From assembly GCA_963816535.1 (NCBI GenBank), contig CAWFKW010000006.1, forward strand, positions 324,334 to 388,333: a DNA stretch of 64,000 bases, written 5' to 3'. The translations under genes and the position numbers were made by a program. The first letter of the stretch is position 1; every line of letters starts with the position of its first letter. The notes beneath the pieces were generated by a model. That model did no database searches and was not told where the DNA came from. It saw nothing but the letters and a program-made list of their open reading frames with translations. Of this stretch, positions 8,925 to 32,951 are shown in pieces. The stretch is from an uncultured Ignavibacteria bacterium (GTDB taxonomy: Bacteria > Bacteroidota > Ignavibacteria > Tepidaquicellales > OLB5).

Positions 8925-10300
8925 TTGAAAAGATATTTCTCAGAAAGCACTGTATTATTTGTCAGCGTGCTCAAGTGGGTTTTTTTATCCACGATTGTTG
9001 GTGTGATTGTCGGGTTGGCTACTACGGGCTTTTTGAAGCTCTTAAACATCAGCATTGCCGCGCTAAAGATTACCAATATTATTTTCTGCTGCTTCCGGCG
9101 GCTTTTTTTGTAAGCACTTTTATAATCCAATACCTTGCCCCCGATGCCGAAGGGCACGGCACTGAAAAAGTTATCGAAGCAGTGCACAAGAATTCGGGAA
9201 GAATAAAAGCTGCCGTAGTACCCGTTAAATTAGTTTCTACAATAATAACTCTTGCCGCGGGAGGCTCTGTAGGTAAAGAGGGGCCGTGTGCGCAGATAGG
9301 CGGCGGGCTCTCATCGTTGTTTGCCGACCTTTTAAGATTCGGCGATGAAGACCGGCGGAAACTTGTAATCTGCGGAATCAGCGCCGGGTTTGCGGCAGTG
9401 TTCGGCACGCCAATTGCCGGGGCGATCTTCGGGGTCGAAGTTCTATTTATCGGAAGTATCTTATATGAAGTGCTTCTCCCTTCCTTTATCGCCGGGATAA
9501 CAGCATACCAGATATCATCGTCGCTAGGATTAACTTATTTCCACCACACTATAAATTTTGTTCCCGTATTCAGCGAGGGTTTTTTCCTGAAGATCATGCT
9601 GGCAGGTTTGTTCTTTGGCGTGGTTTCCATAATATTCATTGAGACGCTCAAATATTTCGAAAAGCTTTCGGAAAAAATTAAAATATGGAAACCTCTTAAA
9701 GGCGTTATTGGCGGAGTTGTTTTAATAGGGCTCACGCTGATCTTTTCAAGTCAATATCTTGGGCTGGGCCTGGATTCAATTGAATCGAACTTAAAAGGCG
9801 GAAGTATTCCGTGGTACGCTTTTCTTGTAAAGATCCTTTTTACAAGTATTACATTGAGCTTCGGCGGAAGCGGCGGAATTGTTACGCCGATATTTTTTGC
9901 AGGAGCGGCATCGGGTTCTCTGTTTGCAGTCATTCTTGGGCTTGATCTTGCCACATTTTCCGGTATTGGGCTGGTTAGCGTCCTTGCTGGAGCGGCTAAT
10001 ACCCCGATTGCAGCGAGCATAATGGCTGTTGAATTATTCGGCCCCAAAATAGCGCCGTATGCTACTGTAGCTTGCGTTATCAGCTTTCTTATCACCGGCC
10101 ACAGAAGCGTTTACCCTTCGCAAATTCTTTCATTCAAGAAATCATCCTCCCTTAACGCGGATATAGGTATTGAAATAGAAGATGTTGAACCGCAGGAACA
10201 ACAGCAAATAGTCAACTTCAAGCGCCGAAGCCTTATAGCATTTGGAAAACTAAGAAGGCGAAAAAAAGCAAAGACTGAAAAAATGGATGATCCCGGCTGA
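8925..10300 (+). pseudogene. ClC-family chloride channel gene interrupted by an apparent 1-nt frameshift (or a sequencing error)
   Basis: Frame 3 (8925-~9080) encodes the first TM helix, KWVFLSTIVGVIVGLATTGFLKLL. Frame 2 from ~9080 encodes YFLLLPAAFFV..APDAEGHGTEKVIEA..GKEGPCAQIG..GIFGVEV..GIVTPIFF. Adding one T to the T4 run at 9082-9085 joins the two frames. Confidence 0.7.
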
Positions 10301-10386
10301 GGACGGATTCCCCTGGGACCAATACCGGTTGCTGATTGAAGGGGAGGATCCGAAATGGATTATACTCTTATTAACATGCGTTTTTG

Positions 10387-10415
10387 CCCGTTTCATTAAT
10401 AGAAACGGGTTTTTT
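10387..10415 (+). terminator. Rho-independent terminator
   Basis: CCCGTTTC-attaata-GAAACGGG followed by TTTTTT, downstream of the ClC gene. Confidence 0.75.
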
Positions 10416-10521
10416 GTTTACTAAACCTATATTATAACCCCAATTATTAGCTATTCTATTTCTCATAAAATTAGATTATTATTAGAGGTTATTTTTAAAC
10501 AAAGTACCGGAAGTCCGTCAT

Positions 10522-13500
10522 TTGGAAGCCACAAAAGTATTAGTAATTGAGGACGAGCAGTTTATCGCTGATGATATTTCGGCGGCTCTTGTCAGGCTTG
10601 GCTACGAAGTATGCGGCGTTTTTGATAACGGCCGCGAGGCGATAAGTTCTGTTGGCAGGTTGAAACCGGATATCGCGCTTGTTGACGTTACAATAAAAGG
10701 CGATTTGGACGGCTTGCAGACCGCAACAAAAATAAATGAGCTCATCGATATTCCAATCGTATATCTTACCGCAAATCAATCCAGCGAAGTAATTGAGAAA
10801 ATGAATGCAACGCACCCGTTCGGGCTGCTTCTTAAACCTGTAAATGATAAAGAGCTGAAAACACGCCTGACGCTTGCACTGTACCGCTTTGAAACTGATA
10901 AAAGACTGAGGGAAAGCGAAGAAAGATATTTCCGCCTTACCGAGAACGCAAGGGATATGATCTACAGGATGCAGCTTCCCCAGGGAAATTACGAATATGT
11001 AAATAACGCTTCCATTGAATTAACCGGGTACTCTCCCGAAGATTTTTATAAGAACAGGGAGCTCATATCAGAAATAATTCACCCGGACTGGAAGCATTAC
11101 TTCGAAGTCCAATGGGAAAAGCTGCTTGGCGGCGAAGCTGACAGTTATTATGAATTCCAGATTATTCATAAGTCAGGCGAGGTAAAATGGCTAAACCAGA
11201 GAAACGTAATTGTTTACGGGCCGGATGGCGAGCCTGCGGCTGTTGAAGGAATAGCGACCGATGTTACCGCCCAGAAAAGATCGGAAAGCTTTATAAGAAG
11301 GCAGAGCGAGGAGTACAGGTCCATATTCGACGCGTTTCCGGATATGGTTCTTCTGAAGGATACAAACAACAGGATAGTAAGAGCCAACAAATTATGCGCT
11401 TCATACTTTGGGCGCAGGGTTGAAGAGCTGGAAGGAAAGTACATTGATGAATTTTTCCCCGGCGATGCTGAAGCTTCTCTGAAACAGGACAGGGAAATTG
11501 TTCTTTCCGGTATGCCTATGCTCGGAATTATTGAAAGGTACGATAATCCTGTTAAAGGAGATGTTTGGTTAAAGTTTGACAAGTACCCATTCAGAAATGA
11601 TAAGGGAGAGATAACCGGCATAATAGTTATGGGGCAGGATATCACCAGGGAAAAAGAATATGAACGGCAGCTTCAGGAGGCGGAGGCACAAAGCGCCGCC
11701 CTGGTTAATACTATACCCGATCTTCTCTTCGAGTATGACAGGGAAGGCAGACATGTGAGCTATAAAGTGAAAGATGAAAAGGATCTTTTTGTCCCGCCTG
11801 AAATGTTTTTGGGAAAGACGGTTACTGATGCGCTGCCCGGAGAAGTTGGCAGAAACTTCTTTAATTTTATTAAGAAGGCGTTTGAAACCGGGGAGATCCA
11901 GGTTTATGAATACGAGCTTGTTATCGACGAGGATATCAGGGATTTTGAAGTTCGGTTCGTAAAGAGCGGCGATGACAAAGTCCTGGGAATTGTGAGAGAC
12001 GTAAGCGACAGGCTGAAAGCGGAGCGCGCGCTAAGGGAAAGCGAGGAAAAATACAAGAACCTCGTGCAAAACGCCCCGATCGCGCTCACACGGTACATCC
12101 CTGTTAAGAAAATGTACGAATTTGCAAACGAAGAGCTTGTAAAACAGGCGGGCTTTACGCTTGAAGAGCTTAACGCTATGGACGATGAAGAATTCTATTC
12201 GCAGATACATGATGAAGACCGGGTGCTGGTCCTTGCAGAATATGACAAATGGGGGCTTGAGGGATATAAGGGAATCAAGAAATTAACTTACAGAATAGTT
12301 AACAAACAGGGAAAGCTCCTCTGGCTTGATTCATATCATTACGCAGATTTTAATTCAGAAGGCAAACTGCATGCAATTAACCAGATATACATAGATATCT
12401 CAGAACGGAAAAAGGCCGAAGAAGCGCTCTCAAAAAGCGAGGTGCAATACAAAAACCTTGCCCGCAACGCCCCGGTTGCCGTCACAAGGCTTGTTCTTAA
12501 AGACCGGAAGTATGATTTTGTCAATGATGAATTTGTGAGACAGTGCGGATACACTATGGATGAGATAAATAATATGAGAATGGCTGATTTTGCCGACATG
12601 GTTTACGAAGAGGACAGGCGGAAGATATCCGAAGAATATAACGAGTGGAGAGATGCAGGATGCAGCGGCGTAAAATTCATGGAATACAGGGTTATCAAGA
12701 AAAACGGCGACATTCTCTGGCTGAACACTTATGTCTACGGCGAGTTTTCTGAGAATGGCGAGCCGGAAACTATAAACCAGATATGCATAGACGTTACGGA
12801 CAGGAAAGAAGCCGATGAGGCAATAAAACAAAGCGAGGAAAAGTTCAGGGCGGTCTCTGAATCGATGCGCGCGCAGATTGTAATCTTCCAGGACGAAAGA
12901 TTTGTCTATGTGAACCCTTATTCGGAAGAACTTACCGGATATTCTACAGAAGAGCTGCTGAAGATGAATTTTTGGGGACTGATGCATCCTGAAGATAAGG
13001 ATATCGCAATGCAAAGGGGGCTGGCAAGGCAGAAGGGCGAGAATGCGCCGAGCGAATACGAAATGAAGATCATAACCAAGAGCGGCGCCGTGAAGTGGCT
13101 TTATTATTCAGCGGTAATGATAAAGTATATCGGCAGGCCGGCGGTGCTTGGTATAGCGTTTGATATATCTGACAGGAAAAAGTATGAAGAAGCCCTTAAA
13201 AAAAGCGAAGAGCGGTACCGCGCATTTATCGACCAGAGTTTCGAAGGAATCTACAGGATAGAACTTCTTAGCCCAATTTCAACTGACCTGCCTGTAGAAG
13301 AGCAGCTGAACCTGATGTACAGGTATAGCTATATAGCCGAATGCAACGAGGTATTTTCGGAGATGATGGGTTTTCGCGATACCGCCGAAATTGCCGGCAA
13401 AAGGATCAGCGAAATTGCGGATACTTCGGGCTGGGACTACTTCAGTAACATGAAGTCTTTTGTGGCAGGCGGGTACAGAGAGCTGAATGAGGAATCCCAT

Positions 13501-14277
13501 GAACGCAGAAAAGACGGCGGCGATGGTTATTACTTAAACAATTCAGTTGGGATAATCGAAGACGGGATGCTGCACAGGATTTGGGGCACAAGGCAGGATA
13601 TTACAGAAAAAAAGATGGCGGAGGACCTGTTGAAAAAATCTTTGCACGAGAAAGATATTCTTCTGAAAGAAATTCATCACCGCGTTAAAAATAACCTGCA
13701 GATAGTCTCAAGCCTATTAAAGCTCCAATCGCAGTACGTAAAAGATAAAAAGACGCTCGAGCTTTTCCAGGAAAGCCAGAACCGCGTCCATTCAATGTCG
13801 ATTATTCATCAGAAGCTTTATCAGTCCCGCGACCTCAGCAACATAAATTTCGGCGAATATATAGGTATGCTTGTATCGCACCTGATGCAAACATTCGGTC
13901 TGAACCCGTACGATTTCAAAATAAAAATTGATACTGAAAGCCTGGTAATGTCTCTTGATAATGCAATCCCGGCGGGCCTGATCATAAATGAGCTGGTAAC
14001 AAATTCACTGAAGCACGCATTTGAGGGCGATAGCGGCGGCGGGTCGATAGAAATAAAGGTCAGTTATGAAGAGAAAATCAACTCATATAAGATAGTTGTT
14101 AAAGATAACGGGAAAGGTATGTCTCCCGGTTTTGACATTGCAAACTCATCTTCGTTCGGCCTTAAGCTTGTATCTATGCTTACAAACCAGATGAACGGCA
14201 GCGTAAGCCATATAAGCGAAAAAGGCGCGGAATTCACAGTTATTCTAAAAAGCGCCGAATATAAGGAACGCTCCTGA
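10522..14277 (+). CDS. Hybrid sensor: REC + multiple PAS + HisKA_2 histidine kinase
   Basis: TTG start. N-terminal receiver (VLVIEDE..ALVDVTIKGDLDG..LLKP). About 7 PAS-like blocks are separated by D(I/V)(T/S)(D/E)RK..E linkers. H-box is HHRVKNNLQIVSSLLKLQ. ATPase boxes are NELVTNSLKHAF and DNGKGM. Confidence 0.85.
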   Translation: MEATKVLVIEDEQFIADDISAALVRLGYEVCGVFDNGREAISSVGRLKPDIALVDVTIKGDLDGLQTATKINELIDIPIVYLTANQSSEVIEKMNATHPFGLLLKPVNDKELKTRLTLALYRFETDKRLRESEERYFRLTENARDMIYRMQLPQGNYEYVNNASIELTGYSPEDFYKNRELISEIIHPDWKHYFEVQWEKLLGGEADSYYEFQIIHKSGEVKWLNQRNVIVYGPDGEPAAVEGIATDVTAQKRSESFIRRQSEEYRSIFDAFPDMVLLKDTNNRIVRANKLCASYFGRRVEELEGKYIDEFFPGDAEASLKQDREIVLSGMPMLGIIERYDNPVKGDVWLKFDKYPFRNDKGEITGIIVMGQDITREKEYERQLQEAEAQSAALVNTIPDLLFEYDREGRHVSYKVKDEKDLFVPPEMFLGKTVTDALPGEVGRNFFNFIKKAFETGEIQVYEYELVIDEDIRDFEVRFVKSGDDKVLGIVRDVSDRLKAERALRESEEKYKNLVQNAPIALTRYIPVKKMYEFANEELVKQAGFTLEELNAMDDEEFYSQIHDEDRVLVLAEYDKWGLEGYKGIKKLTYRIVNKQGKLLWLDSYHYADFNSEGKLHAINQIYIDISERKKAEEALSKSEVQYKNLARNAPVAVTRLVLKDRKYDFVNDEFVRQCGYTMDEINNMRMADFADMVYEEDRRKISEEYNEWRDAGCSGVKFMEYRVIKKNGDILWLNTYVYGEFSENGEPETINQICIDVTDRKEADEAIKQSEEKFRAVSESMRAQIVIFQDERFVYVNPYSEELTGYSTEELLKMNFWGLMHPEDKDIAMQRGLARQKGENAPSEYEMKIITKSGAVKWLYYSAVMIKYIGRPAVLGIAFDISDRKKYEEALKKSEERYRAFIDQSFEGIYRIELLSPISTDLPVEEQLNLMYRYSYIAECNEVFSEMMGFRDTAEIAGKRISEIADTSGWDYFSNMKSFVAGGYRELNEESHERRKDGGDGYYLNNSVGIIEDGMLHRIWGTRQDITEKKMAEDLLKKSLHEKDILLKEIHHRVKNNLQIVSSLLKLQSQYVKDKKTLELFQESQNRVHSMSIIHQKLYQSRDLSNINFGEYIGMLVSHLMQTFGLNPYDFKIKIDTESLVMSLDNAIPAGLIINELVTNSLKHAFEGDSGGGSIEIKVSYEEKINSYKIVVKDNGKGMSPGFDIANSSSFGLKLVSMLTNQMNGSVSHISEKGAEFTVILKSAEYKERS

Positions 14278-14393
14278 ATCCTTATTATGTATTGACAAAG
14301 CGACGTAAATACGTTATTTTTTAGCGGCTTTAAATAATTGTGCATTAACCGTCCTCATATGCCTGATTATGAATAATCTAAGAGAGATCTTCA

Positions 14394-17246
14394 ATGACTG
14401 ACCTTAACCGGAAACCTATAAATCCTGCCGGAATGTCTGCTACTGCAAGAATTACTTTAATATATTTTATTATAGGCGCGCTTTGGATATTCTCTTCCGA
14501 CTATATCCTCTCTTTGCTTGTTTCAAACGTTGAGACAATTAAATGGATCTCTATATATAAAGGCTGGTTATTCGTATTAGTTACCGGCATTTTGCTTTTT
14601 TTGCTTATGAAAAGAGCTGAATCGGCGCGTGATGAGCTTCAGGCAGAGCTGGTAAAGAGCGAGCGCAAGTACAGGTCAATAGTCGAGACTTTCAATGAAG
14701 TGGTATGGACGTTCGATGAAGAAGGGAAGATAACGTTTATAAATGGCGCCTGCAGAAGGCACTTTGGATACGGGCCGGAAGAAATGACCGGGAAGATCTT
14801 TTTGCAGTACGTAGCTCCGGAATGCAAACAGAGGGATATGGAATATTTTGCAGGCGCTGTTTCAGGCGGTCGCGATATAGTTGATTACGAAACAAAAATA
14901 ATTGATAACCTTGGAAATGTAAAAAACGTTATTGTTAACGCAGTGATCGCAAAAGACGCTGCAGGCAAAAAGACAGCTATATACGGGACAATATTTGACG
15001 TTACCGAACAAAAGCGATATGAAGAGGCGCTTGTTGCGAGCGAAGAGAAATACAGAAAACTGGTTGAATCATCTCACGGCCTTGTATGGACGTTCGATAA
15101 GAATTTTAATATAACATTTGTTAACCAGCCTTCAAATGAGATCCTGGGATATAAACCCGATGAACTTATAGGCAAGAACATTTATTCGATTTCCGACCCT
15201 GTTTATGCGCACAGGAACATGGCGATAATCACGCAGGTAATAAAGCTCAGGAAGTCAAAGGCTCAATTTGAATCTGCGCTGAAAGCAAAAGACGGCAGGC
15301 AGGTGTTTTTCCTGGTGAATTTATTGCTGGAGTATGACAGCGGAGGGAATTTCACAGGCTCTATCAGCAAATCTCTCGACATAACCGAAAGAAAGAAAAT
15401 TGAAGAGCAGGTAAGGATAAGCGAAGAAAAATACAGAAACATTGTTGAAACTGCTAACGAGGGCGTATGGATCACCGACAAAGAGAACAAGACCACTTTT
15501 GTAAACAGGGCGCTGGCAAAGATGCTGGGATACGAAGTGCGCGAAATGCTCGGAAGGCTCATTTACGAGTTTATAGATACGAGCGGCGCATCTGAAACCG
15601 GAACCGGCATTCTTATGGATAACCGCAGCAATGCTTCTATTTACGAGCTGAAGTTCCTGAAAAAAAACGGCGAAACGCTGTGGATATTGCTGAATACGAC
15701 CCCGATCTTCGATAAGGATGAGAATTTTGACGGCACGCTTGCAATGCTGACCGATATTAACGGGCGTAAGCTGGCCCTGGATGCGCTGGCTGCAAGCGAA
15801 AACAGGTACAGGACAGTTTTAGATACGTCTCCTTCGTCAATCAGAATAATCGACCTGAACGGGAAGATCCTGTATGGGAACAGGCGCACGGCGGTATTGC
15901 ATGGATATAACGATATTTCTGAGATGATCGGGATGAGCGTTTTCGAACTAATGAAAGGAGAAAACGAGGTAATTTCAAGGAATTCGCTTCAGGCGGTTAA
16001 GGATAAAGGCTTTGCCAGCGGTGAAATTTATTTTGCGAGAAAAGACGGTTCCGAATTCCCCGCGGAGTTCTATTCATCTATGCTGAATGATGAGTCGGAC
16101 AGGCCGATTGGGTTTATTTCCATTATTAACGACATAAGCGAGAAAAAGAAAGCGCAGCAGGAAGTTCTGGAAAGCAGGGAAAGACTCAGCTCCATCTTGA
16201 ATACAGCTATGGATGCGATTGTAACAACCGATGAAAGCAGAAAAATTGTTTTGTTCAATAAATCCGCTGAAAAACTTTTTAAATGCAGCGAATCAGCTGC
16301 GCTGGGCAGCGACGTTAATAAGTTCATACCGGAGAGGTTTCAGAAAATTCATAACAGGCACGTTGAAAAATTTTCACAGACTGCGGAAACATTCAGTTCC
16401 ATGCTCTCCGGAAGTTCTCCGGTTGCGATCACGCTTGACGGAGAAGAAATCCCGGTGGAGACTTCTGTTTCAAAAACAGAGATAGGCGGCATGAAATTTT
16501 ATACTGTGATCCTTCGGGACATTACAGAGAGGATCAGGTATGAGACCGACCTTAAAGATTCGAATTCAAAGCTTCACCACCTGGCTTCTCATCTTCAAAA
16601 CATAAGGGAAGAAGAGCGAATGCTGATATCAAGAGATATTCATGACCAGGTTGGGCAGGAGTTAACCGCGCTGAAGATGGACATGGTCATGCTCTCTAAG
16701 GAGCTTGAAAGAAACGGCGCTCCCTCTGACGGGAAGAAAGTTATTGAAGAATTGCGCTCAATGGCCGATCTTACTGATAAGAGCATCAAGTGGATAAGAA
16801 ACCTCTCAACTGAACTTAGGCCGGATGTGCTTGACAGGCTGGGTCTTTTTGAAGCAGTCGAATGGCATTGCAAAGAATTCGAAAAACGTTCAGGCATCGG
16901 GTGCAAGGTAAGATTAAACGGCAACGATTCGGACCTTTCAAAAGAACATTCAGTTGTTTTTTTCAGGATACTGCAGGAATCGCTTACAAATGTGCTTCGG
17001 CATTCCGGCGCTTCCGGCGTTGAAGTAAATATGACCGAATCCGGAGATGACTTTACGCTTATGGTAAAAGACAACGGGAAGGGAATTACTGAAGAGAGGT
17101 TGGAAGGGACTGCATCGCTTGGGCTGATAGGGATGAAAGAAAGGGCATATATGCTGGGCGGCGCGGTGGAAGTTTGCGGCAATGAAGGGAAAGGCGCAAT
17201 TATTAAGGCTGTCATTCCCAAAATAAATAAATCGTATCATGAATGA
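14394..17246 (+). CDS. Membrane-anchored multi-PAS histidine kinase (HisKA_3/NarX type)
   Basis: Two N-terminal TM helices and at least 5 PAS blocks. H-box is DIHDQVGQELTALK. HATPase boxes are QESLTNVLRHSGA, DNGKGI and GLIGMKERA. Its 3' end overlaps the response-regulator gene by 8 nt. Confidence 0.85.
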   Translation: MTDLNRKPINPAGMSATARITLIYFIIGALWIFSSDYILSLLVSNVETIKWISIYKGWLFVLVTGILLFLLMKRAESARDELQAELVKSERKYRSIVETFNEVVWTFDEEGKITFINGACRRHFGYGPEEMTGKIFLQYVAPECKQRDMEYFAGAVSGGRDIVDYETKIIDNLGNVKNVIVNAVIAKDAAGKKTAIYGTIFDVTEQKRYEEALVASEEKYRKLVESSHGLVWTFDKNFNITFVNQPSNEILGYKPDELIGKNIYSISDPVYAHRNMAIITQVIKLRKSKAQFESALKAKDGRQVFFLVNLLLEYDSGGNFTGSISKSLDITERKKIEEQVRISEEKYRNIVETANEGVWITDKENKTTFVNRALAKMLGYEVREMLGRLIYEFIDTSGASETGTGILMDNRSNASIYELKFLKKNGETLWILLNTTPIFDKDENFDGTLAMLTDINGRKLALDALAASENRYRTVLDTSPSSIRIIDLNGKILYGNRRTAVLHGYNDISEMIGMSVFELMKGENEVISRNSLQAVKDKGFASGEIYFARKDGSEFPAEFYSSMLNDESDRPIGFISIINDISEKKKAQQEVLESRERLSSILNTAMDAIVTTDESRKIVLFNKSAEKLFKCSESAALGSDVNKFIPERFQKIHNRHVEKFSQTAETFSSMLSGSSPVAITLDGEEIPVETSVSKTEIGGMKFYTVILRDITERIRYETDLKDSNSKLHHLASHLQNIREEERMLISRDIHDQVGQELTALKMDMVMLSKELERNGAPSDGKKVIEELRSMADLTDKSIKWIRNLSTELRPDVLDRLGLFEAVEWHCKEFEKRSGIGCKVRLNGNDSDLSKEHSVVFFRILQESLTNVLRHSGASGVEVNMTESGDDFTLMVKDNGKGITEERLEGTASLGLIGMKERAYMLGGAVEVCGNEGKGAIIKAVIPKINKSYHE

Positions 17247-24126: not shown

Positions 24127-24279
24127 AGGTCATGCTCAAAATCAGCAGTTTACAATTTTATTTTCGTATATGTATGAAAAAGAGAAGCTTAGATATTAAG
24201 CAGCAGTTTATAAGAAGTTTAGCGGTGTGATTAGGTCTTTTTATTTTTGCTTGATCCAGGAAGGTCGTGTTTTCCGGAG

Positions 24280-24369
24280 CGGAGAGGGAGGGATTCGAAC
24301 CCTCGATAGCCCTTAACAGACTATGTCGGTTTAGCAAACCGGTGGTTTCAGCCACTCACCCACCTCTCC
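24280..24369 (-). tRNA. tRNA-Ser (anticodon GCU)
   Basis: The reverse complement folds by hand. Acceptor GGAGAGG/CCTCTCC. 3-bp D-stem with a long D-loop. Anticodon stem CCGGT/ACCGA with loop TTGCTAA (GCT). Long variable arm. T-arm GAGGG-TTCGAAT-CCCTC. Discriminator G. No encoded CCA. Confidence 0.9.
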
Positions 24370-24370
24370 G
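24327..24370. repeat. attL core: 44-bp direct repeat (tRNA-Ser nt 1-43 plus 1 nt)
   Basis: cggtttagcaaaccggtggtttcagccactcacccacctctccg is identical to 32908-32951. Confidence 0.9.
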
Positions 24371-24534: not shown

Positions 24535-25575
24535 ATGTTTCTCTCAAAACAACACAAAGGGACTTACTACCTGTTCTACAATGATGAAATTACAGGCAAA
24601 AGGAAAAAAATCTCAACCAAAACAAAAAAGAAACCGGAAGCATATAATTTTCTAAATTCATTCAAAGCAGGTTTAACGCCTAAGAAAAACCCTGTAATCT
24701 ATTTGGAAGGTCTAAAAGATGAAGTGCTTAAATACACACAAACTAACCTGTCCCCCGCTACACACTGCCTTTATATAACTGCTTTTAAAAACCTGTTAAG
24801 TTTCTTAGGTAATAAGCCTATTAAGTTAATTACTACAAAGGAACTGGATAACTATAAAAACAAGCGGGCTAATGAGATAAGAAAAGCTACCGTCAATATT
24901 GAGCTATGCTGTATCAAAGCTATTTTCAATCTTGCTTTAAAATGGGACTTTATAAACAGTAACCCCGCTAAAGAAGTTAAGAAATTCAAAATTGAGGAAC
25001 GGGAAATATTAAGTTTCTCGGATACGGAGCTTAAAATATTGTTTGACGCTATTCCCGAAGGCAACATCAGGAATATTGTTCTTTTTGCCCTAAACACAGG
25101 TTGCAGGATTAACGAAATTCTAAACGTACAGATAAAGGATATTAACCTAAAAGAAAAAGTCCTTACCATAATGAATAAGGACGATTTTAGAACTAAGTCG
25201 GGCAGAATAAGACAGATACCGGTTTCGGACGCCTTAGAAACGCTGTTAAGGGGGTTATTAGGGCAGGAAACTAATGTATTTGAATTAAACGACCCTGAAA
25301 CATATTTGTTCGTTAATAGCAAGCGCTGTAAGTATGATAAAAATTTCATTTCAAAAAAGTTCAAGGAATATCTTCGCATGGCGGGTTTACCGGAAAAGTT
25401 TCATTTTCACTGCCTTAGGCATACATATATAACCAACCTTGTTAAAGCAGGGGCGAATATCAACTATATTAAACAGATAGCGGGGCACGCTGACCTGAAA
25501 ACAACGGAAAATTATATTCATATAGGAATTGAGGATTTGCGAAATGCAGTTAATAAAGTGAATGTAAATTATTAG
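24535..25575 (+). CDS. int: Tyrosine recombinase/integrase (full length, with N-terminal arm-binding-type domain)
   Basis: C-terminal catalytic pattern ..TGCRINEIL.. / FHFHCLRHTYITNL / GHADLKTTENYIH (R..HxxR..Y). N-terminal KGTYYLFYNDEITGKRKKISTKTKKKPEA resembles Bacteroidota integrase arm-binding domains. Confidence 0.9.
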   Translation: MFLSKQHKGTYYLFYNDEITGKRKKISTKTKKKPEAYNFLNSFKAGLTPKKNPVIYLEGLKDEVLKYTQTNLSPATHCLYITAFKNLLSFLGNKPIKLITTKELDNYKNKRANEIRKATVNIELCCIKAIFNLALKWDFINSNPAKEVKKFKIEEREILSFSDTELKILFDAIPEGNIRNIVLFALNTGCRINEILNVQIKDINLKEKVLTIMNKDDFRTKSGRIRQIPVSDALETLLRGLLGQETNVFELNDPETYLFVNSKRCKYDKNFISKKFKEYLRMAGLPEKFHFHCLRHTYITNLVKAGANINYIKQIAGHADLKTTENYIHIGIEDLRNAVNKVNVNY

Positions 25576-25640: not shown

Positions 25641-25797
25641 TCAGCGTTTCTTATCTCATAGCTTAAACTCGCAAGTTTAAAATTTTACACGAAGATAAGG
25701 AGACGCTCACGCATTCCAGCGTGGGCTCTCTTATTCGTGTAAGGGTTTCTTGCGAGACCTAAGCTGCGGTAAGATGTAGTTTCACGCTGGTTTTTTT
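25641..25797 (+). other. 157-nt rod-like imperfect palindrome ending in a T7 run (candidate structured RNA, large terminator, or folded-DNA site)
   Basis: Hand-paired nested stems: 25642-47/25784-89, 25649-55/25768-74, 25660-65/25760-65, 25668-75/25749-56, 25685-25703/25727-42 (with bulges), and 25705-12/25719-26 closing a 6-nt loop. T7 follows at 25791-97. Confidence 0.5.
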
Positions 25798-26136
25798 ATT
25801 TAGCAGCAAACACAAAACAAAACACTGACTATGAAAGAGATGTCGATTAGAACGCATCGATAATATTTTCAAGTCAACTCTTGAATATTTAATTAATCAA
25901 ATGGGTAAATATAACGAACATAAATTTTTATCAAAGAGGTACATTTGGGATGCGCAAGAGGGAAATGTAATATATGAACAATTAGGTAATTTGGGATATT
26001 ATTGTATTAATATTTTCCTCACGTCAAGCTCAATAAATAACCAAGTAAAAGATTATCACTCAAAACATTAATAACAGTACATAAATTAATTAAATCTCAA
26101 ACCTATTCTTAATGCCTAAATTAACTGGAGGCTAAA

Positions 26137-26286
26137 ATGAAAAAAATGTTAATATTTTTATCTTTATTATTAGCGTTGCATATAATACAAATGCTGGAGC
26201 ATAAATTTTGTCACGTTGTGGCTATAGACAGAATGTTGTATAAGCCGTTTCCGCTATGTCCATACTTTTATGCCCATTTTACTTAA
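26137..26286 (+). CDS. Unlisted 49-aa small protein, copy A (hydrophobic N-terminus, Cys/His-rich C-terminus)
   Basis: MKKMLIFLSLLLALHIIQMLEHKFCHVVAIDRMLYKPFPLCPYFYAHFT. The paralogue at 27579 differs at 13 nt, of which 9 are synonymous. Confidence 0.6.
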   Translation: MKKMLIFLSLLLALHIIQMLEHKFCHVVAIDRMLYKPFPLCPYFYAHFT

Positions 26287-26356
26287 CAGTTAACGGCATT
26301 AGGTTGTTGTTTCACGCTGGTTTTTTTATTGACCTAAACACAAAACATTTACTTAG

Positions 26357-26740
26357 ATGAACAATACTGAAATAGAATTCTTTGAAGCAGAAGTCCAATC
26401 TCTCAGAGCCAATGGCTATACAATACATGTGAAAAACACTACGTCAGCAGTTCTCGTAAAGAAAGAAAAGATTAATTATTTAATAGCATTCGCTCTCGCC
26501 GCAATTGAAGCCTTATTTTTTGTAATGCTTTGCAGAACATCAGTTAACACAACGAACCTCATTATTCTATTCGGAATTACCTGTGTAGTGTACTATCTTG
26601 TGCGAAAGGAACACTATTTGTTTATTAAATTGAATTCTATTGGACAATTAGAGAAGAAAAAATACAAATCCGTGAAGCCCGGCGAATTGCTAAATCTCTT
26701 TGACTTGTTTCAACAAGATGCCTTCTCAAATGATTATTAA
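26357..26740 (+). CDS. Hypothetical small membrane protein (2 predicted TM helices)
   Basis: 127-aa ORF with hydrophobic segments YLIAFALAAIEALFFVML and LIILFGITCVVYYLV. Island cargo. Confidence 0.5.
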   Translation: MNNTEIEFFEAEVQSLRANGYTIHVKNTTSAVLVKKEKINYLIAFALAAIEALFFVMLCRTSVNTTNLIILFGITCVVYYLVRKEHYLFIKLNSIGQLEKKKYKSVKPGELLNLFDLFQQDAFSNDY

Positions 26741-26805
26741 CGGCTTTATTGAACCTTGAAAATGATAACACAGTTTTTGAACAATAAGCACTAATTCGCA
26801 ATTCT

Positions 26806-27519
26806 ATGAGTTTGAAATGTCCTAAATGCGGTCTGTTTAATCCCGACAATGCTCTTAGGTGCGATTGTGGTCATTCCTTTGTTAAAAAGCCTGAGACGAG
26901 CGTCCCGTCCGAAAACGAATTTGAATCTACAAATCGGCATGACTTTCTCAGAAAGCAAGTACTGAGCGGGAAAACAACTGCCGAAGCACTACAACTATGG
27001 AAGGAACGACAACTAGTACCCGTGTCAACTGAGAAGGTAAGAGAAGCAGAAGCGGGTAACGACCCAATAAAACCAGTGGAAGAAAAACCCGTTACCCAAG
27101 ATGATGCAACCGTCAATCAAAAAAGTACAAAAAAGATTGCTTTTGTTAAACGAAAAATTGTAATTTTTTCCTTAGTGATTGTTTCAATTGTTGTATTAGT
27201 CCTCATTGCTAAAGGCTATTTCTTTTCAACCGCAGAAGACTTCAATTCCACTTACATAATAAAAGTCTTCCCTTCAATTAAAGATGACCCTTATGATATT
27301 CAATATGAAATTAAAAGGAAAGATGGAACAATAATAATAAAGGATTTGAAAAGTCAAGAGGGTTATAATGATTACGAGGCTAATGGTAAAAAGCTGTCTG
27401 TAACAATCAGTCAAAGGTACAATGACCAAAACATAAAACTTGAAATATGGGAAAAGTTAAGTCTAAAGTTAAATGACGAATTGAAAGGAACGGGGAAACT
27501 AACGCTAAAGACTGAATGA
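26806..27519 (+). CDS. Zinc-ribbon / single-pass membrane protein of unknown function
   Basis: N-terminal CPKCG..(11)..CDCGH zinc ribbon, a charged linker, TM segment IVIFSLVIVSIVVLVLIA, then a ~90-aa C-terminal domain. Confidence 0.55.
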   Translation: MSLKCPKCGLFNPDNALRCDCGHSFVKKPETSVPSENEFESTNRHDFLRKQVLSGKTTAEALQLWKERQLVPVSTEKVREAEAGNDPIKPVEEKPVTQDDATVNQKSTKKIAFVKRKIVIFSLVIVSIVVLVLIAKGYFFSTAEDFNSTYIIKVFPSIKDDPYDIQYEIKRKDGTIIIKDLKSQEGYNDYEANGKKLSVTISQRYNDQNIKLEIWEKLSLKLNDELKGTGKLTLKTE

Positions 27520-27578
27520 TGATACCGCAAAACAAAACATTTTTGGCATATTTATAGCTAAATAAACTGGACGCTAAA

Positions 27579-27728
27579 ATGAAAAAAATGCTGATATTTT
27601 TATCTTTATTATTAGCTCTGCATATAATACACGTGCTGGAGCACAAATTTTGTCACGTTGTGGCTATAGATAAAATGTTATATAAGCCGTTGCCGCTATG
27701 TCCCTACTTTTATGCTCATTTTACTTAA
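27579..27728 (+). CDS. Unlisted 49-aa small protein, copy B
   Basis: MKKMLIFLSLLLALHIIHVLEHKFCHVVAIDKMLYKPLPLCPYFYAHFT. It lies in the second copy of the 175-bp repeat. Confidence 0.6.
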   Translation: MKKMLIFLSLLLALHIIHVLEHKFCHVVAIDKMLYKPLPLCPYFYAHFT

Positions 27729-28506
27729 CAGTGCTATGATACTCAAAACAAAACATATAAAAATGAAAGCATTATTACCCGTCTCAATATTATTCATTTC
27801 CTTACTTTCATTTATTTGCTCGACTAATACAGAAATAGAGCAGAACAAAAATATAAATGCGGTCAAAGGTATACGTTTATACTATGATACTTTACATCTG
27901 AATCCTATAAACAAAGAATTTTACTTCCCCACAAATTTATATACTCATGATTCAATTTATTTATCGGATAGGTCTGACACAATTACCTTTAAGAGTTATT
28001 TGAAACCCAATAATGACCATTGGCAACGAATGAATGAATGGTATTCCGAAGCGCTGAGGGCATTAAAAGAACCAAAAATATATAATTTGGATACAACGCT
28101 AGAAATTTATCGCTTTACTTGGCTAAGAACCTTTCATAAACCCGTAGCTATAAGAATTGAAAACAATAATAATAAATACAAACTGTTTTTGAAAATAAGT
28201 GACGGGGCAGGCGGGTATTCACCGGGTAAACTAATTGTGAATGAAAATAAAATTCTAACATATGATGAATGGAATATTTTTAAAGATATGCTAAGTAAAA
28301 TAAATTTTTGGCAACTCGTTCCAGAAACCCTCGAAAACATGGGTAATGATGGTGCAGGGTGGATTTTAGAAGGCAAAACAAAAGATAAGTATAATTTTAT
28401 GACAATATGGAATCCAAACGAAAAACATCATCAAGATTTTCGTGAGTGCTGTGAATATTTAATAAATTTAAGCAAACTCAAAATAAAGAAATCTGAATTA
28501 TATTAA
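27712..28506 (+). CDS. Hypothetical secreted protein (likely start ATG 27763)
   Basis: Starting at 27763 gives the signal peptide MKALLPVSILFISLLSFICSTN. The upstream 17 codons overlap the small ORF and the repeat. Confidence 0.5.
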   Translation: MLILLNSAMILKTKHIKMKALLPVSILFISLLSFICSTNTEIEQNKNINAVKGIRLYYDTLHLNPINKEFYFPTNLYTHDSIYLSDRSDTITFKSYLKPNNDHWQRMNEWYSEALRALKEPKIYNLDTTLEIYRFTWLRTFHKPVAIRIENNNNKYKLFLKISDGAGGYSPGKLIVNENKILTYDEWNIFKDMLSKINFWQLVPETLENMGNDGAGWILEGKTKDKYNFMTIWNPNEKHHQDFRECCEYLINLSKLKIKKSELY

Positions 28507-28530: not shown

Positions 28531-29376
28531 ATGAAAACAATATATTTATTTCCTGTTCTAATTATCTGTTTGTTGATAAATTTTAATACCAGCGTATCTC
28601 AAAATAATCAGGGCAGCGACAAAAAATCCGCTTCTGGTATAAAGTCTACAACAACATTCTTAATACTTTACGATAATGGTAAGCCTACGGGGGATTCCTT
28701 AATAAATTATTATATTGAATATGACAAAGAAGGAAATATATTGCAGGATTCCGATTATTATAAAGGGCATTTATTTGCAAAATATTTTTATAAGTACGGT
28801 AAAAATGGTTTTATAAAAGCCGAAACGTTTGAATATTATAACGAAAAAACGGGGCAAGTTAATGACGTCATAAAGACAAATTACAACAATGATGGGAAGA
28901 AGCTGGAAACAATCCATTACACTTTTATATTAGGGGATACTCTTTTAGATAGAAGTATTTATAAATATGACACAAAAAATGACTGTGAACTTAGCGTAAA
29001 CGTCACTGATAACGATTCAATTGTTAGCAAGACGTGTTTTAAATATGATAAAAATGGTAACGCTATTAAAGAAACCCATACAAACTCAAATGGTGTAGTA
29101 AATCTAACTTATAGCAGATTGTTTAATGACTCCGGTAATTTGATACAGGAAATATCGACTAACACAGATAAAGATTTTGAGTATAAAATTATTTGCAAAT
29201 ACAATGATTCTAATATAAAAACCGAGCAAATCAGATACGACGGCAACGGGAATTTACAAAGCAGTACAAAATTTACAAAATACGATTCAAATGGAAATCT
29301 TTTGGAAAGTATTACATACAATAGCAATGATAATATACTTTCAGTTTACCGCAACCAATTTCAATATTTTAAATAG
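28531..29376 (+). CDS. Secreted protein with YD-like repeats
   Basis: Signal peptide, then recurring (K)YD..GN(L/I)..(E/D).. units (YDKEGNILQDSDYY, KYDKNGNAIKETH, RYDGNGNLQSS, KYDSNGNLLESITY). Confidence 0.5.
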   Translation: MKTIYLFPVLIICLLINFNTSVSQNNQGSDKKSASGIKSTTTFLILYDNGKPTGDSLINYYIEYDKEGNILQDSDYYKGHLFAKYFYKYGKNGFIKAETFEYYNEKTGQVNDVIKTNYNNDGKKLETIHYTFILGDTLLDRSIYKYDTKNDCELSVNVTDNDSIVSKTCFKYDKNGNAIKETHTNSNGVVNLTYSRLFNDSGNLIQEISTNTDKDFEYKIICKYNDSNIKTEQIRYDGNGNLQSSTKFTKYDSNGNLLESITYNSNDNILSVYRNQFQYFK

Positions 29377-29407
29377 CAACAAACCATGAAATCAACATTA
29401 GTTATAA

Positions 29408-29431
29408 AGCGGATTAAATCCCGCTTTTTTT
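29408..29431 (+). terminator. Rho-independent terminator
   Basis: AGCGGAT-taa-ATCCCGCT (one bulged C) followed by TTTTTTT. Confidence 0.6.
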
Positions 29432-29459
29432 ATTTCTATACCCCTCTTAAATACTTATA

Positions 29460-30168: not shown

Positions 30169-31083
30169 ATGCCTCGCTCCCAGATAAATAAATCTCCTGT
30201 AATATATCTTGAACAACTACAAGCGCAAGTGTTAAAATACACAGCGTCAAATCTTGCTCTAAGCACTCATCAACTGTACGTTACGGCTTTCAAAAACTTA
30301 ATTGGTTTCTTAGGCAATGTTCCCGTTACGCTAATTACTTCAAAGCACATTGACGATTTTAAGAGTTTTCGCTCTGAACAAATATCAAAATCAACTGTAA
30401 ATATTCAATTATGTTGTATAAAAGCAGCTTTTAACCTTGCTGTTAGATGGAATATGCTTGAAGTCAGTCCCGCCGAAAACGTTAAGAAGTTCCGAGTAGA
30501 GCAAACGGAAATACTGTCATTCCGAGATGATGAATTAAGGGTACTGCTTTCAGAAATTCCAGACGGCAACTTAAAAAATATTGTTTTATTTGCCATATAC
30601 ACTGGTTGTCGTATAAACGAAATCCTAAACATTCAGCATAAAGACATTGACCTCACAGAAAGAATTTTATTTATACGCAACAATGCAGAAACGGGATTCA
30701 AAACCAAAACAGGGCGCAACCGTCAAATCCCTATTTCAGATAGCTTGTACAACCCCTTACAACGCCTTTTAAAGCACGATAGCAACGTTTACTGCTTATC
30801 TGAACCTGACAGATACCTATTTACCAACCGCAAGGGCTTCAAATTCCAAAAAGACTATATAAGCAAGCAATTCAAAAATCATTTAAGAGCTTGTAACCTG
30901 CCAGAAAAATTTCATTTTCATTGCCTGCGTCACACATTCGTAACAAACCTTATCCGAAACGGGGTCAATATTTCTTTCGTTAAGGAGTTAGCGGGGCATT
31001 CTAATATTTCAACCACGATGAATTATATACACCTTGTTACGGATGACCTTCGAGACGCTGTAAACAAGATTAAGTTTGGTTAG
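30169..31083 (+). CDS. int: Tyrosine recombinase/integrase paralogue lacking the N-terminal arm-binding-type domain
   Basis: By eye roughly 55-60% identical to Int1 from Int1 residue ~46 onward (PVIYLEQL.., TGCRINEILN, FHFHCLRHTFVTNL, GHSNISTTMNYIH). An in-frame TGA at 30097-99 prevents any N-terminal extension. Confidence 0.85.
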   Translation: MPRSQINKSPVIYLEQLQAQVLKYTASNLALSTHQLYVTAFKNLIGFLGNVPVTLITSKHIDDFKSFRSEQISKSTVNIQLCCIKAAFNLAVRWNMLEVSPAENVKKFRVEQTEILSFRDDELRVLLSEIPDGNLKNIVLFAIYTGCRINEILNIQHKDIDLTERILFIRNNAETGFKTKTGRNRQIPISDSLYNPLQRLLKHDSNVYCLSEPDRYLFTNRKGFKFQKDYISKQFKNHLRACNLPEKFHFHCLRHTFVTNLIRNGVNISFVKELAGHSNISTTMNYIHLVTDDLRDAVNKIKFG

Positions 31084-31085
31084 GC

Positions 31086-32330
31086 TTGAATATGAAAGTT
31101 TACATCCCCTCCACTTTGCCAATAGCCCTGTTTCCTGAAAAGCATAAGGACAAGTATTTCTATTTCCTTCACAAAATTTATGAGGAAAGAGTATTTAATA
31201 AGGAATATGAATATAACTCTTACGTTAACCTGAATGCTTCAATTATGAGATATATTATAGGTCGAGGAAGCTTTGAACCTGTTAGAAGTGCCTTAATCGC
31301 TAAAGGTATTATTGAAACTGATAACTGGTATGTTGTAGGTAAGAAGTCCAAAGGTTACAGGTTAACTTTTCAATATAGCGGTGTTAAACATCAGCAGTTA
31401 GAGATAACGGATAGTAATATTATTAACAGGGTAAGCGTATTTAAGCAAAGGCAGGAATACAACATTCCGCTGGGAATAGAATATCAAAAACTCCATGAAT
31501 GGCTTAATTTATTTTCTATTGACTATGAAAAAGCTATCCAGTTCATTAATTCAAACTACGCCGCCGACACTCACAAATGGATATGTAATACCATTTCTGT
31601 AGATAAAATTAAGGAAAAGGACATCTTTTTTGTTGCCGATAGTTCAGCAGGACGGGTTCATACTAATATAACCAATCTTTCAAGAGAGTTGAGGCGGTTT
31701 CTGCTATTTGATAATAAGCCTCTTGTCAATATTGACCTTGCAAACTCCCAACCGTTTTTGTTTAATATCTTAATCAAAAAATATGTTGACGGCGGCAACG
31801 TTTCTTTTTCTAACAATCTTCCCAATTCTCAATCACATCTTCTACCTTATGATGGCTACTATGATGGAAAAGTTAATAATGACATTGATTTATATTTACA
31901 ACTAACAAGCGACGGCAAGTTTTATGAGTATTTAATGCAACAAATGAATTACAACGGCGATAGGAACATGTTTAAAAAAGAGTTTTTCGGTAAGGTTTTT
32001 TACTCTAAAAATAGCTCTAATTATGTTTTCAGGGAACGGAAAGAGTTTAAACGGCTATTCCCTACAGTTTCTAACATTATTGATTACCTCAAAAAGGATG
32101 ACTATAGGGCGCTGCCCGTCATGTTACAACGTGCAGAACGTAAGATTATCATTAATAAAATTGTCAGGAGAATTGTCATTGAGCGTCCCGAACTCCCTAT
32201 TAGCACTATTCATGATAGCATTCTGACAACCAAAGGGAATGAAAACTATGTTAGCGATGTAATAAGGGAGGAATTTTCTAAAGAAATTAATTTGATACCG
32301 TCCATTAAGACCGAAATATATGGTTCTTAA
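31086..32330 (+). CDS. Minimal family-A (PolA/T7-like, TV-Pol-like) polymerase-like protein
   Basis: Ordered motifs AGRVHTN, PLVNIDLANSQPFLFNIL (A), RNMFKKEFFGKVFY (B) and ISTIHDSILTT (C). It starts 3 nt (TTG) or 9 nt (ATG 31092) after the int2 stop. Confidence 0.55.
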   Translation: MNMKVYIPSTLPIALFPEKHKDKYFYFLHKIYEERVFNKEYEYNSYVNLNASIMRYIIGRGSFEPVRSALIAKGIIETDNWYVVGKKSKGYRLTFQYSGVKHQQLEITDSNIINRVSVFKQRQEYNIPLGIEYQKLHEWLNLFSIDYEKAIQFINSNYAADTHKWICNTISVDKIKEKDIFFVADSSAGRVHTNITNLSRELRRFLLFDNKPLVNIDLANSQPFLFNILIKKYVDGGNVSFSNNLPNSQSHLLPYDGYYDGKVNNDIDLYLQLTSDGKFYEYLMQQMNYNGDRNMFKKEFFGKVFYSKNSSNYVFRERKEFKRLFPTVSNIIDYLKKDDYRALPVMLQRAERKIIINKIVRRIVIERPELPISTIHDSILTTKGNENYVSDVIREEFSKEINLIPSIKTEIYGS

Positions 32331-32907: not shown

Positions 32908-32951
32908 CGGTTTAGCAAACCGGTGGTTTCAGCCACTCACCCACCTCTCCG
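32908..32951. repeat. attR core: orphan 5' fragment of tRNA-Ser
   Basis: Identical 44 bp. The sequence on the side where the tRNA 3' half should be (..ttaccaa) is not tRNA-like. Confidence 0.9.

Follow-up and report, generated by a model that had tools for sequence, protein, structure and literature searches.

The 64,000-nucleotide (nt) stretch of contig CAWFKW010000006.1 from an uncultured Ignavibacteria bacterium, hereafter the window, carries two copies of a short module, which a preliminary description presented as a duplicated 175-bp unit encoding an unannotated small protein. On comparison of its copies, this repeat of 175-182 bp is a real protein-coding gene of 49 amino acids (aa) together with a short 5′ leader, and the gene is selectively constrained. 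It is an orphan, with two copies in one island of the window and one in a sister island. Small hydrophobic proteins that escape annotation on mobile islands are a known kind, and the family is new.

The two copies align by blastn over 175 nt (26116-26290 vs. 27558-27732) at 91.4% identity with 15 differences (E = 3.7e-66), in agreement with the duplication at about 91% first described, and a repeat scan gives a direct repeat of 182 nt at 90% identity (26109-26290 vs. 27551-27732). No further copy was found in the window by tblastn or blastn. Each copy contains a 49-aa open reading frame (ORF) exactly where it had been placed, preceded by a leader; the ratio of nonsynonymous to synonymous substitution rates is written dN/dS below, and L014 and L015 are two metagenome contigs that carry the sister island.

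26109..26136, + strand: conserved 5′ leader of copy A, GCCTAAATTAACTGGAGGCTAAA then ATG; common to copy B, to a third copy (C) on L015 and to the leader of gene p247 on L014
26137..26286, + strand: small ORF A, 49 aa, MKKMLIFLSLLLALHIIQMLEHKFCHVVAIDRMLYKPFPLCPYFYAHFT; the sole open frame, dN/dS 0.09-0.18 against copies B and C
27541..27578, + strand: 5′ leader of copy B, from leader comparison, including a sigma-54-like TGGCAT-N5-TAGCT at 27544-27559
27579..27728, + strand: small ORF B, 49 aa, MKKMLIFLSLLLALHIIHVLEHKFCHVVAIDKMLYKPLPLCPYFYAHFT; dN/dS 0.086 against A and 0.124 against C

The repeat fits the ORF closely, beginning 28 nt 5′ of the ATG and stopping 4 nt 3′ of the TAA. ORFs A and B differ at 13 nt across 12 codons, and a codon-by-codon check returned the pattern reported earlier, with 8 codons (9 nt) changed synonymously and the other four carrying the conservative replacements Q18H, M19V, R32K and F38L. 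The remaining 2 of the 15 differences in the 175-nt alignment lie within the 21 nt ahead of the ATG. The Nei-Gojobori dN/dS between A and B is 0.086 (Fisher p = 6e-5). When 13 random substitutions were simulated, four or fewer amino-acid changes with no stop arose in just 0.13% of cases, and a stop codon was created in 34%. The remaining five reading frames hold stops in every copy.

A third intact copy, ORF C (MKKILVFLSLLLALHIIQMLEHKFCHVVAIDKMLYKPLPLCPYFYAHFT), was found at 2615-2764 of L015, with the same length, start and stop as A and B. Both L014 and L015 are contigs of the independent JGI metagenome 3300078328, reached via the relatives of the recombinase Int1 and of p247 in clusters at 90% identity. 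The dN/dS values involving this copy are 0.177 for A-C (Fisher p = 0.008) and 0.124 for B-C (p = 0.0014). The three copies are roughly equidistant, with 11-13 differences per pair, and of their 17 variable sites 12 fall at third, four at first and one at second codon positions. Counted on a star tree, the changes are 12 synonymous vs. 6 replacement, against an expected synonymous share of about 20% (binomial p = 1.8e-5), and every replacement among the three copies is conservative (M/I, I/V, Q/H, M/V, R/K and F/L). ATG-1 and the TAA are kept in all three copies, whereas Met4 is replaced by Ile in copy C, showing that ATG-1 is the conserved start. The similarity breaks off 2-4 nt past the stop codon, at three different downstream junctions. 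The preliminary description had argued that the repeat is not non-coding but a gene that is translated and under constraint, and had named frameshifts, stops or a lost synonymous bias in homologues as grounds for giving that up; copy C is intact and keeps the bias (dN/dS 0.12-0.18), which supports the argument. We infer that the small ORFs are translated.

The peptide stands apart from every collection searched. No homologue was found among about 5.8 billion clustered proteins by a word-indexed search, among 1.84 billion representatives by exhaustive HMMER, in tblastn against plasmids and phages, or among the PDB sequences, and the Pfam, PHROGs, PADLOC and NCBIfam libraries gave no match. Back-translated patterns of the peptide had no match in GTDB species genomes, viral contigs or JGI metagenome contigs, and the DNA pattern of the leader was absent from the metagenome and viral contigs scanned. 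A 15-bit match to a hidden Markov model (HMM) in locus L017 was rejected as chance similarity over 20 residues, and P0129 (L020-L022) as a clustering artefact.

The ORFs had been called unannotated, and the exact 49-aa peptide is indeed not on record. The Logan assembly ERR12036782 contains the same island on an 8,597-bp contig, where the 49-aa ORF was passed over in gene calling. On the source contig, NCBI/ENA annotate p247 as a protein of 264 aa starting from an ATG at 27712, inside ORF B, and this mis-call from within the small ORF helps account for the absence of the small gene from protein databases. We also observed that callers extend the downstream genes to ATGs inside the 3′ ends of the small ORFs (27712-28506; L015 2734-3714; 26256-26360). 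The mis-extended p237 homologue on L015 is 326 aa long, and the starts supported by homology are 27763 for p247 and 2788 on L015.

The small ORFs sit in an 8,581-bp island between perfect 44-nt direct repeats. Its genes, all on the + strand, are in order Int1, a 56-aa ORF, ORF A, p127, p237, ORF B, p247, p281, p171, Int2 and p414, and its GC content is 33.6% (28-37% in the island genes) vs. 42-44% in the flanks. The features that the following sections need are these.

24279..24369, − strand: tRNA-Ser(GCT), of whose gene the 44-nt repeats are the 5′ part
24327..24370, no strand assigned: left 44-nt direct repeat, within the tRNA-Ser(GCT), by repeat and tRNA search
24535..25575, + strand: Int1, tyrosine recombinase, by HMM libraries
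26357..26740, + strand: p127, orphan with a hydrophobic stretch (about residues 40-85, by eye), 70 nt past the stop of ORF A
26806..27519, + strand: p237, with a zinc-ribbon-like N-terminal CPKC...CDC (weak zf matches), a hydrophobic segment and a C-terminal domain
27763..28506, + strand: p247, lipoprotein-like N-terminus, member of a widespread uncharacterised family, by homologue search
28531..29376, + strand: p281, signal-peptide-like N-terminus, sub-threshold MORN_2, RHS and YD-repeat matches in HMM libraries
29406..29435, + strand: intrinsic-terminator-like hairpin AAAGCGGATTAAATCCCGCTTT (29406-29427) plus T run after p281; no earlier site of this type follows either small ORF
30169..31083, + strand: Int2, second tyrosine recombinase, 57% amino-acid identity to Int1, by HMM libraries
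32908..32951, no strand assigned: right 44-nt direct repeat, 100% identical to the left one, by repeat search

The sister island on L014 and L015 is 91-95% identical to the window island in the parts they have in common, and it runs from Int1 and a hairpin through the gene of a 162-aa protein, which matches MORN_2 faintly, to ORF C, followed by a longer homologue of p237 and a leader-p247 fusion. The adjacency of L015 and L014 is taken from synteny with the window, their overlap being just 8 nt, and the leader-p247 fusion itself lies within one contig. There, L014 reads TTTTGGCATATTTATTGCTAAATTAACTGGACGCTAAA-ATG-AAA-ACA-TTA, i.e., the leader of ORF B and its ATGAAA run on in frame into p247 from codon 3, and the window has 184 extra bases (27579-27762) relative to L014, the edges of this segment having AAAATGAAA in common. 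This fusion indicates that the leader works as the start region of a gene of a widespread family. Each small ORF had been described as leading its own two-gene cargo module. This is so in the window, where A precedes p127-p237 and B precedes p247-p281, but not as a fixed association, since in the sister island ORF C precedes the p237 homologue, and p247-p281 directly follow a leader that has no small ORF. It is thus partly shown that the leader and ORF form a recombining junction module rather than the fixed head of a cassette.

Shorter repeats at the junctions also point to recombination, and two copies of one of them flank leader and ORF B.

27519..27540, + strand: left copy of a 21-22-nt direct repeat, ATGATACCGCAAAACAAAACAT, by repeat search
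27736..27756, + strand: right copy of this repeat, ATGATACTCAAAACAAAACAT, 6 nt 5′ of the p247 start
26300..26345, + strand: 46-nt direct repeat, GTTTCACGCTGG plus seven T and then the A/C-rich AAACACAAAACA, a copy of the 3′ end of the hairpin that follows Int1

The repeat around leader and ORF B can be written ATGATAC(CG/T)CAAAACAAAACAT. Its A/C-rich part, CAAAACAAAACAT, occurs on the + strand five times in the island (25813, 26336, 27528, 27744 and 28374) and twice in L015 (2564 and 3723), and on the + strand of the other integrase-related loci it was not found. Three of its copies lie 6-8 nt 5′ of an ATG; the motif may serve translation as an unstructured enhancer or standby site, or it may be a sequence used at junctions or in recombination. 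The 46-nt repeat at 26300-26345 is 78% identical to 25770-25815 and 92.7% identical to L015 2052-2092. The pair in the window encloses a 10-aa ORF, the 56-aa ORF and small ORF A, and resembles an insertion or recombination scar.

Copies A and B diverge by about 9%, near the divergence between the two islands (5-9%). The nested duplications, the presence of two recombinases and this inter-island level of divergence suggest that alleles were assembled by recombination. Copies A and B would then be diverged alleles joined by recombination between related island variants at shared junctions, and given their divergence and the star-like relation to the third copy, a recent duplication in situ appears less likely. 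A bolder version, in which the leader and the 49-aa gene, bracketed by CAAAACAAAACAT, form the mobile junction unit of an undescribed cassette-shuffling platform of the Ignavibacteria and are moved, or used as crossover, by the two recombinases, strikes us as a long shot. If true, it would be an integron- or rAID-like system whose repeated recombination and expression element encodes a His-lined membrane peptide.

The predicted product begins with MKK followed by a strongly hydrophobic segment (residues 4-18, Kyte-Doolittle mean 2.35-2.5). AlphaFold2, run on a two-sequence alignment and at low confidence, predicts a long helix (residues 2-32) that leads through a loop (KPFPLCP) into a short helix at 42-48. 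Both results bear out the signal- or transmembrane (TM)-like N-terminal helix proposed earlier. There is no good signal-peptidase site after the hydrophobic core, and V-V-A|I after residue 29 is a possible one. The product is most likely a bitopic membrane peptide oriented N-in, C-out. By inspection, H15, Q/H18, H22, C25 and H26 fall within a helix arc of about 100 degrees and make up a polar stripe, whose character the Q18H replacement preserves; such a His/Gln/Cys stripe, as judged from the residues, would suit oligomerisation or binding of a partner. Metal binding or a disulfide in the C-terminal part, as raised in the preliminary description, is speculation.

As for expression, no terminator-like hairpin was found between the small ORFs and 29406, which makes co-transcription of the small ORFs with the cargo plausible, and the cargo transcription unit probably ends at the hairpin at 29406-29427. 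After ORF A, an intrinsic terminator was rejected as improbable, the T run there having no preceding stem. The modules have no significant RNA structure (fold z-scores −0.99 and +0.42) and no Rfam match, by which a structured RNA is ruled out.

With moderate confidence, we favor a joint reading of these observations: a real small gene whose product acts in trans in the envelope, carried on a junction module whose copies are diverged alleles. On this reading, the gene and its leader would be a conserved junction module that is read as the first cistron before different cargo genes. The MKK and the following 17 or so hydrophobic residues would form a signal-anchor helix inserted N-in, C-out in the inner membrane, so that some 29 residues, rich in aromatics and Pro and including two Cys, would face the periplasm, and the peptide would act in trans in the envelope with the adjacent membrane, lipoprotein-like and secreted cargo proteins.

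Several observations weigh against this reading. The codon-usage log-odds in the ORF frame are −5.4 for A, −0.3 for B and −3.2 for C, where the long genes of the island score 13.2 ± 4.8 in frame and −28.5 ± 15.8 off frame; the ORF frame is the best of six in B and C, and in A one minus-strand frame scores slightly higher. We regard this result as neutral to mildly negative, and an odd amino-acid composition may be a plausible cause. The argument for coding is one of sequence comparison throughout, and the set compared is three copies from one island lineage, which gives limited power and lineages that are not fully independent. A family free of homologues gives function no anchor, and in the sister island the p247-p281 pair does without ORF B. 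The module yielded no convincing conserved promoter: a sigma-70-type scan was uninformative (41 sites vs. 35 expected), and the sigma-54-like TGGCAT-N5-TAGCT at 27544-27559, the sole match in the window, would occur once by chance about 25% of the time. Its version at L014 5-20 reads TGGCAT-N5-TTGCT and leaders A and C are without the element, so that it is present in two of four leaders and is a lead only. Finally, topology, stripe and cargo partnership are drawn from inspection of the residues and a low-confidence model, with a mean pLDDT (predicted local distance difference test) of 66 for the 49-aa peptide.

Unlikely, though with several features in its favor, is a cis-acting upstream ORF that delivers or regulates ribosomes for the next gene, either by coupling, as for integron ORF-11, or by nascent-peptide sensing, as for SecM and MifM. 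In every case a cargo gene starts on the same strand 26-70 nt past the small ORF, with no terminator in the gap, and the leader of the small ORF is able to drive p247 directly. In SecM, MifM and VemP, a signal or TM segment at the N-terminus is joined to a conserved stretch at the C-terminus, and each peptide is encoded directly 5′ of a gene that is regulated. The peptide here likewise has a signal/TM segment at its N-terminus, and its C-terminus, rich in Pro and aromatic residues, runs up to the stop, which is how secretion-monitoring arrest peptides are generally organised. However, in contrast to those systems, the cargo downstream is unrelated, the spacers are non-conserved and unstructured and the peptide is much shorter, and the variable downstream genes include no Sec or YidC component. 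Coupling is likewise difficult to reconcile with stop-to-start spacers that vary in length and sequence (70 nt for A, 34 nt for B and 26 nt for C), with the lack of a significant or conserved RNA structure that would mask the downstream start, and with the A-rich start region that belongs to p247 itself where the ORF precedes it. A frameshift fusion to the downstream gene was rejected, the downstream genes lying in frames +1, +1 and +2 relative to the three ORF copies. The precedent for coupling is the class 1 integron attI1, where ORF-11, ORF-17 and ORF-18 encode 11-18 aa of largely irrelevant sequence, ORF-11 being a short cassette-head ORF that enhances translation (PMC8876359). Like these, the small ORF has its own translation start tens of bases 5′ of swappable cargo on a recombinase-driven platform. 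Unlike these, it encodes 49 aa, and the whole peptide is under purifying selection, whereas the amino-acid sequence of ORF-11 hardly matters.

It is improbable that the product is a small membrane toxin, holin-like peptide or addiction factor that stabilises the island. Type I toxins such as Hok, Fst, TisB and Ldr are hydrophobic single-helix peptides of less than 60 aa, often on mobile elements and often unannotated, and the 49-aa peptide resembles them in size, in its one hydrophobic helix (residues 4-20) and in its location on a mobile island. The one-sided His/Gln/Cys stripe seen by inspection could line an oligomeric pore. In contrast to type I toxins, neither an antisense RNA partner nor a characteristic mRNA fold was seen for the small ORF, which has no sequence similarity to them and is co-oriented just 5′ of cargo. 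Consensus scans, which are weak evidence, found no conserved antisense promoter or antitoxin RNA, and Rfam gave no match; the sole minus-strand promoter-like site near copy B (27746-27718) lies in sequence not common to copy A. The modules also have no RNA structure and no PADLOC or Pfam match, there are two copies per island that each read into cargo genes, and loss of the ORF is tolerated at one locus.

Less probable again is a Sec-exported peptide that is cleaved, e.g., after VVA29, to yield a mature signal or bacteriocin-like factor of about 20 aa, with the neighbours as partners or immunity proteins. The n- and h-regions are like those of a signal peptide, V-V-A|I fits the −3/−1 rule, and the gene after copy A, p127, encodes a small protein with a hydrophobic stretch. 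However, the c-region would be unusually long, near-identical peptides precede three unrelated genes and hence have no consistent immunity partner, library scans found no dedicated exporter or processing genes, and in a diderm host Sec alone gets the peptide just to the periplasm. Very improbable, finally, is a non-coding repeat (recombination site, promoter or element of the 5′ untranslated region) with an incidental ORF: its position at cassette junctions, the short flanking direct repeats, the presence/absence polymorphism, the repetitive intergenic sequences of recombinase-associated arrays such as rAID-1, the silence of the gene callers and the mediocre codon-usage score would all suit it, but the strong synonymous bias in three lineages (p = 1.8e-5), a frame open in all copies although about 34% of random sets of 13 substitutions add a stop, a homology boundary that is the stop codon, and the lack of an attC-type inverted repeat or hairpin speak against it.

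Among known systems, the closest comparison is with the rAID-1 arrays of Bacteroidales, which are defined by a 5′ XerD-like recombinase >44% identical to BF9343_RS08045, at least two co-directional downstream genes, a GC content of ≤41% and immunity-gene homologues as cargo, and for whose recombinase homologues of >50% identity are reported from Bacteroidales only (Ross et al. 2019, bioRxiv 10.1101/471110). The island is alike in having a XerD-like 5′ recombinase, co-directional low-GC cargo (all on the + strand, GC 28-37%) and repeated junction sequences, a likeness of architecture; the hosts are related (FCB group, i.e., Fibrobacterota-Chlorobiota-Bacteroidota), and there are faint MORN-type matches in the island cargo. 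The two also differ. First, the repeated junction here is a constrained small ORF, not a non-coding intergenic motif. Second, the island is a discrete element integrated at tRNA-Ser that carries p414 and two recombinases. Third, its cargo matched no known immunity family in Pfam, NCBIfam, PHROGs or PADLOC. Fourth, homologues of the rAID-1 recombinase at >50% identity are reportedly restricted to Bacteroidales, whereas the close relatives of Int1 are all in Ignavibacteria metagenome-assembled genomes (MAGs).

An integron was rejected on two grounds: the two recombinases score 71.6 and 77.4 bits against TIGR02249, whose cut-off is 265, and there are no attC-like inverted repeats between the cargo genes, the only large hairpin being at 25642-25789, past Int1. 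The best profile matches of both proteins are generic Xer-type recombinases, also below their cut-offs. Unlike in rAID-1 and integrons, the repeated junction element of this island is itself a constrained gene. Metagenome-wide surveys of small ORFs find unannotated small transmembrane proteins on mobile elements, and the present gene is like those in being small, hydrophobic, unannotated, located on a transferred island and recognised by conservation; it is unlike them in having no detectable family.

The cargo genes have uneven relations elsewhere. p127 is a single-member cluster at 90% identity with no relative there, no wider search having been made. For p237, one true homologue was found, the 326-aa protein of L015; P0132 (L016), considered as a further relative, was rejected as having only a zinc ribbon in common. 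p237 and the homologue at L015 2788-3714 share the same MSLKCPKCG start and a C-terminal part that is 95% identical in DNA, while their central regions are wholly different, that of the homologue being about 70 aa longer, so that p237 appears as a mosaic cargo gene. The p247 family has at least 194 members, the named ones belonging to Bacteroidota (e.g., Niabella and Mucilaginibacter) and one Inquilinus genome. Within the family, W, R, G and Y positions are invariant, some members have TPR fusions and there is no Pfam domain; elsewhere its members are single genes in unrelated contexts, without the small ORF. A model of p247 has pLDDT >85 for most of residues 90-247 and gave just a weak Mago-nashi-like fold match.

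A large structure of high stability is also predicted just past Int1 (25642-25797), with an energy of −68.4 kcal/mol (z = −7.8), closed by CAGCGT/ACGCTG and followed by seven T. It is kept in L015, where 3 of 37 predicted pairs are changed on both sides and still paired, and it has no Rfam match. It may act as a terminator or as a small RNA, or else as a site for recombination or replication.

The 57% identity between the two recombinases suggests tandem accretion of two related elements. The nearest integrase relatives of Int1 (32-55% identity over full length) are all in MAGs of the Ignavibacteria lineage, from which a host of that class is probable. One such locus, L002, holds a similar 5.9-kb island at 9848-15797 with the same tRNA-Ser repeats and a p414 homologue. 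Across 13 loci with related integrases, L002 included and all but one in Ignavibacteria-lineage MAGs, neither the small ORF nor the A/C-rich motif was found. p414 (31086-32330) has 43-50% identity to its homologues at L002 13019-14239 and L010 15786-17040, which are split by frameshifts or stops, and no significant domain match; it is probably a replication or mobilisation protein of the island.

With one lineage and three copies, the present impact of these results is modest. They provide a clean case in which standard gene callers miss, and even overwrite, a small gene that is real and under constraint. They also describe a family of orphan small proteins that moves together with exchangeable envelope-protein cargo, on an island that targets a tRNA gene in the little-studied Ignavibacteria. 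Should the peptide prove to work with the cargo or to mark the junctions of recombination, it would reveal how islands of this sort put together and express their cargo.

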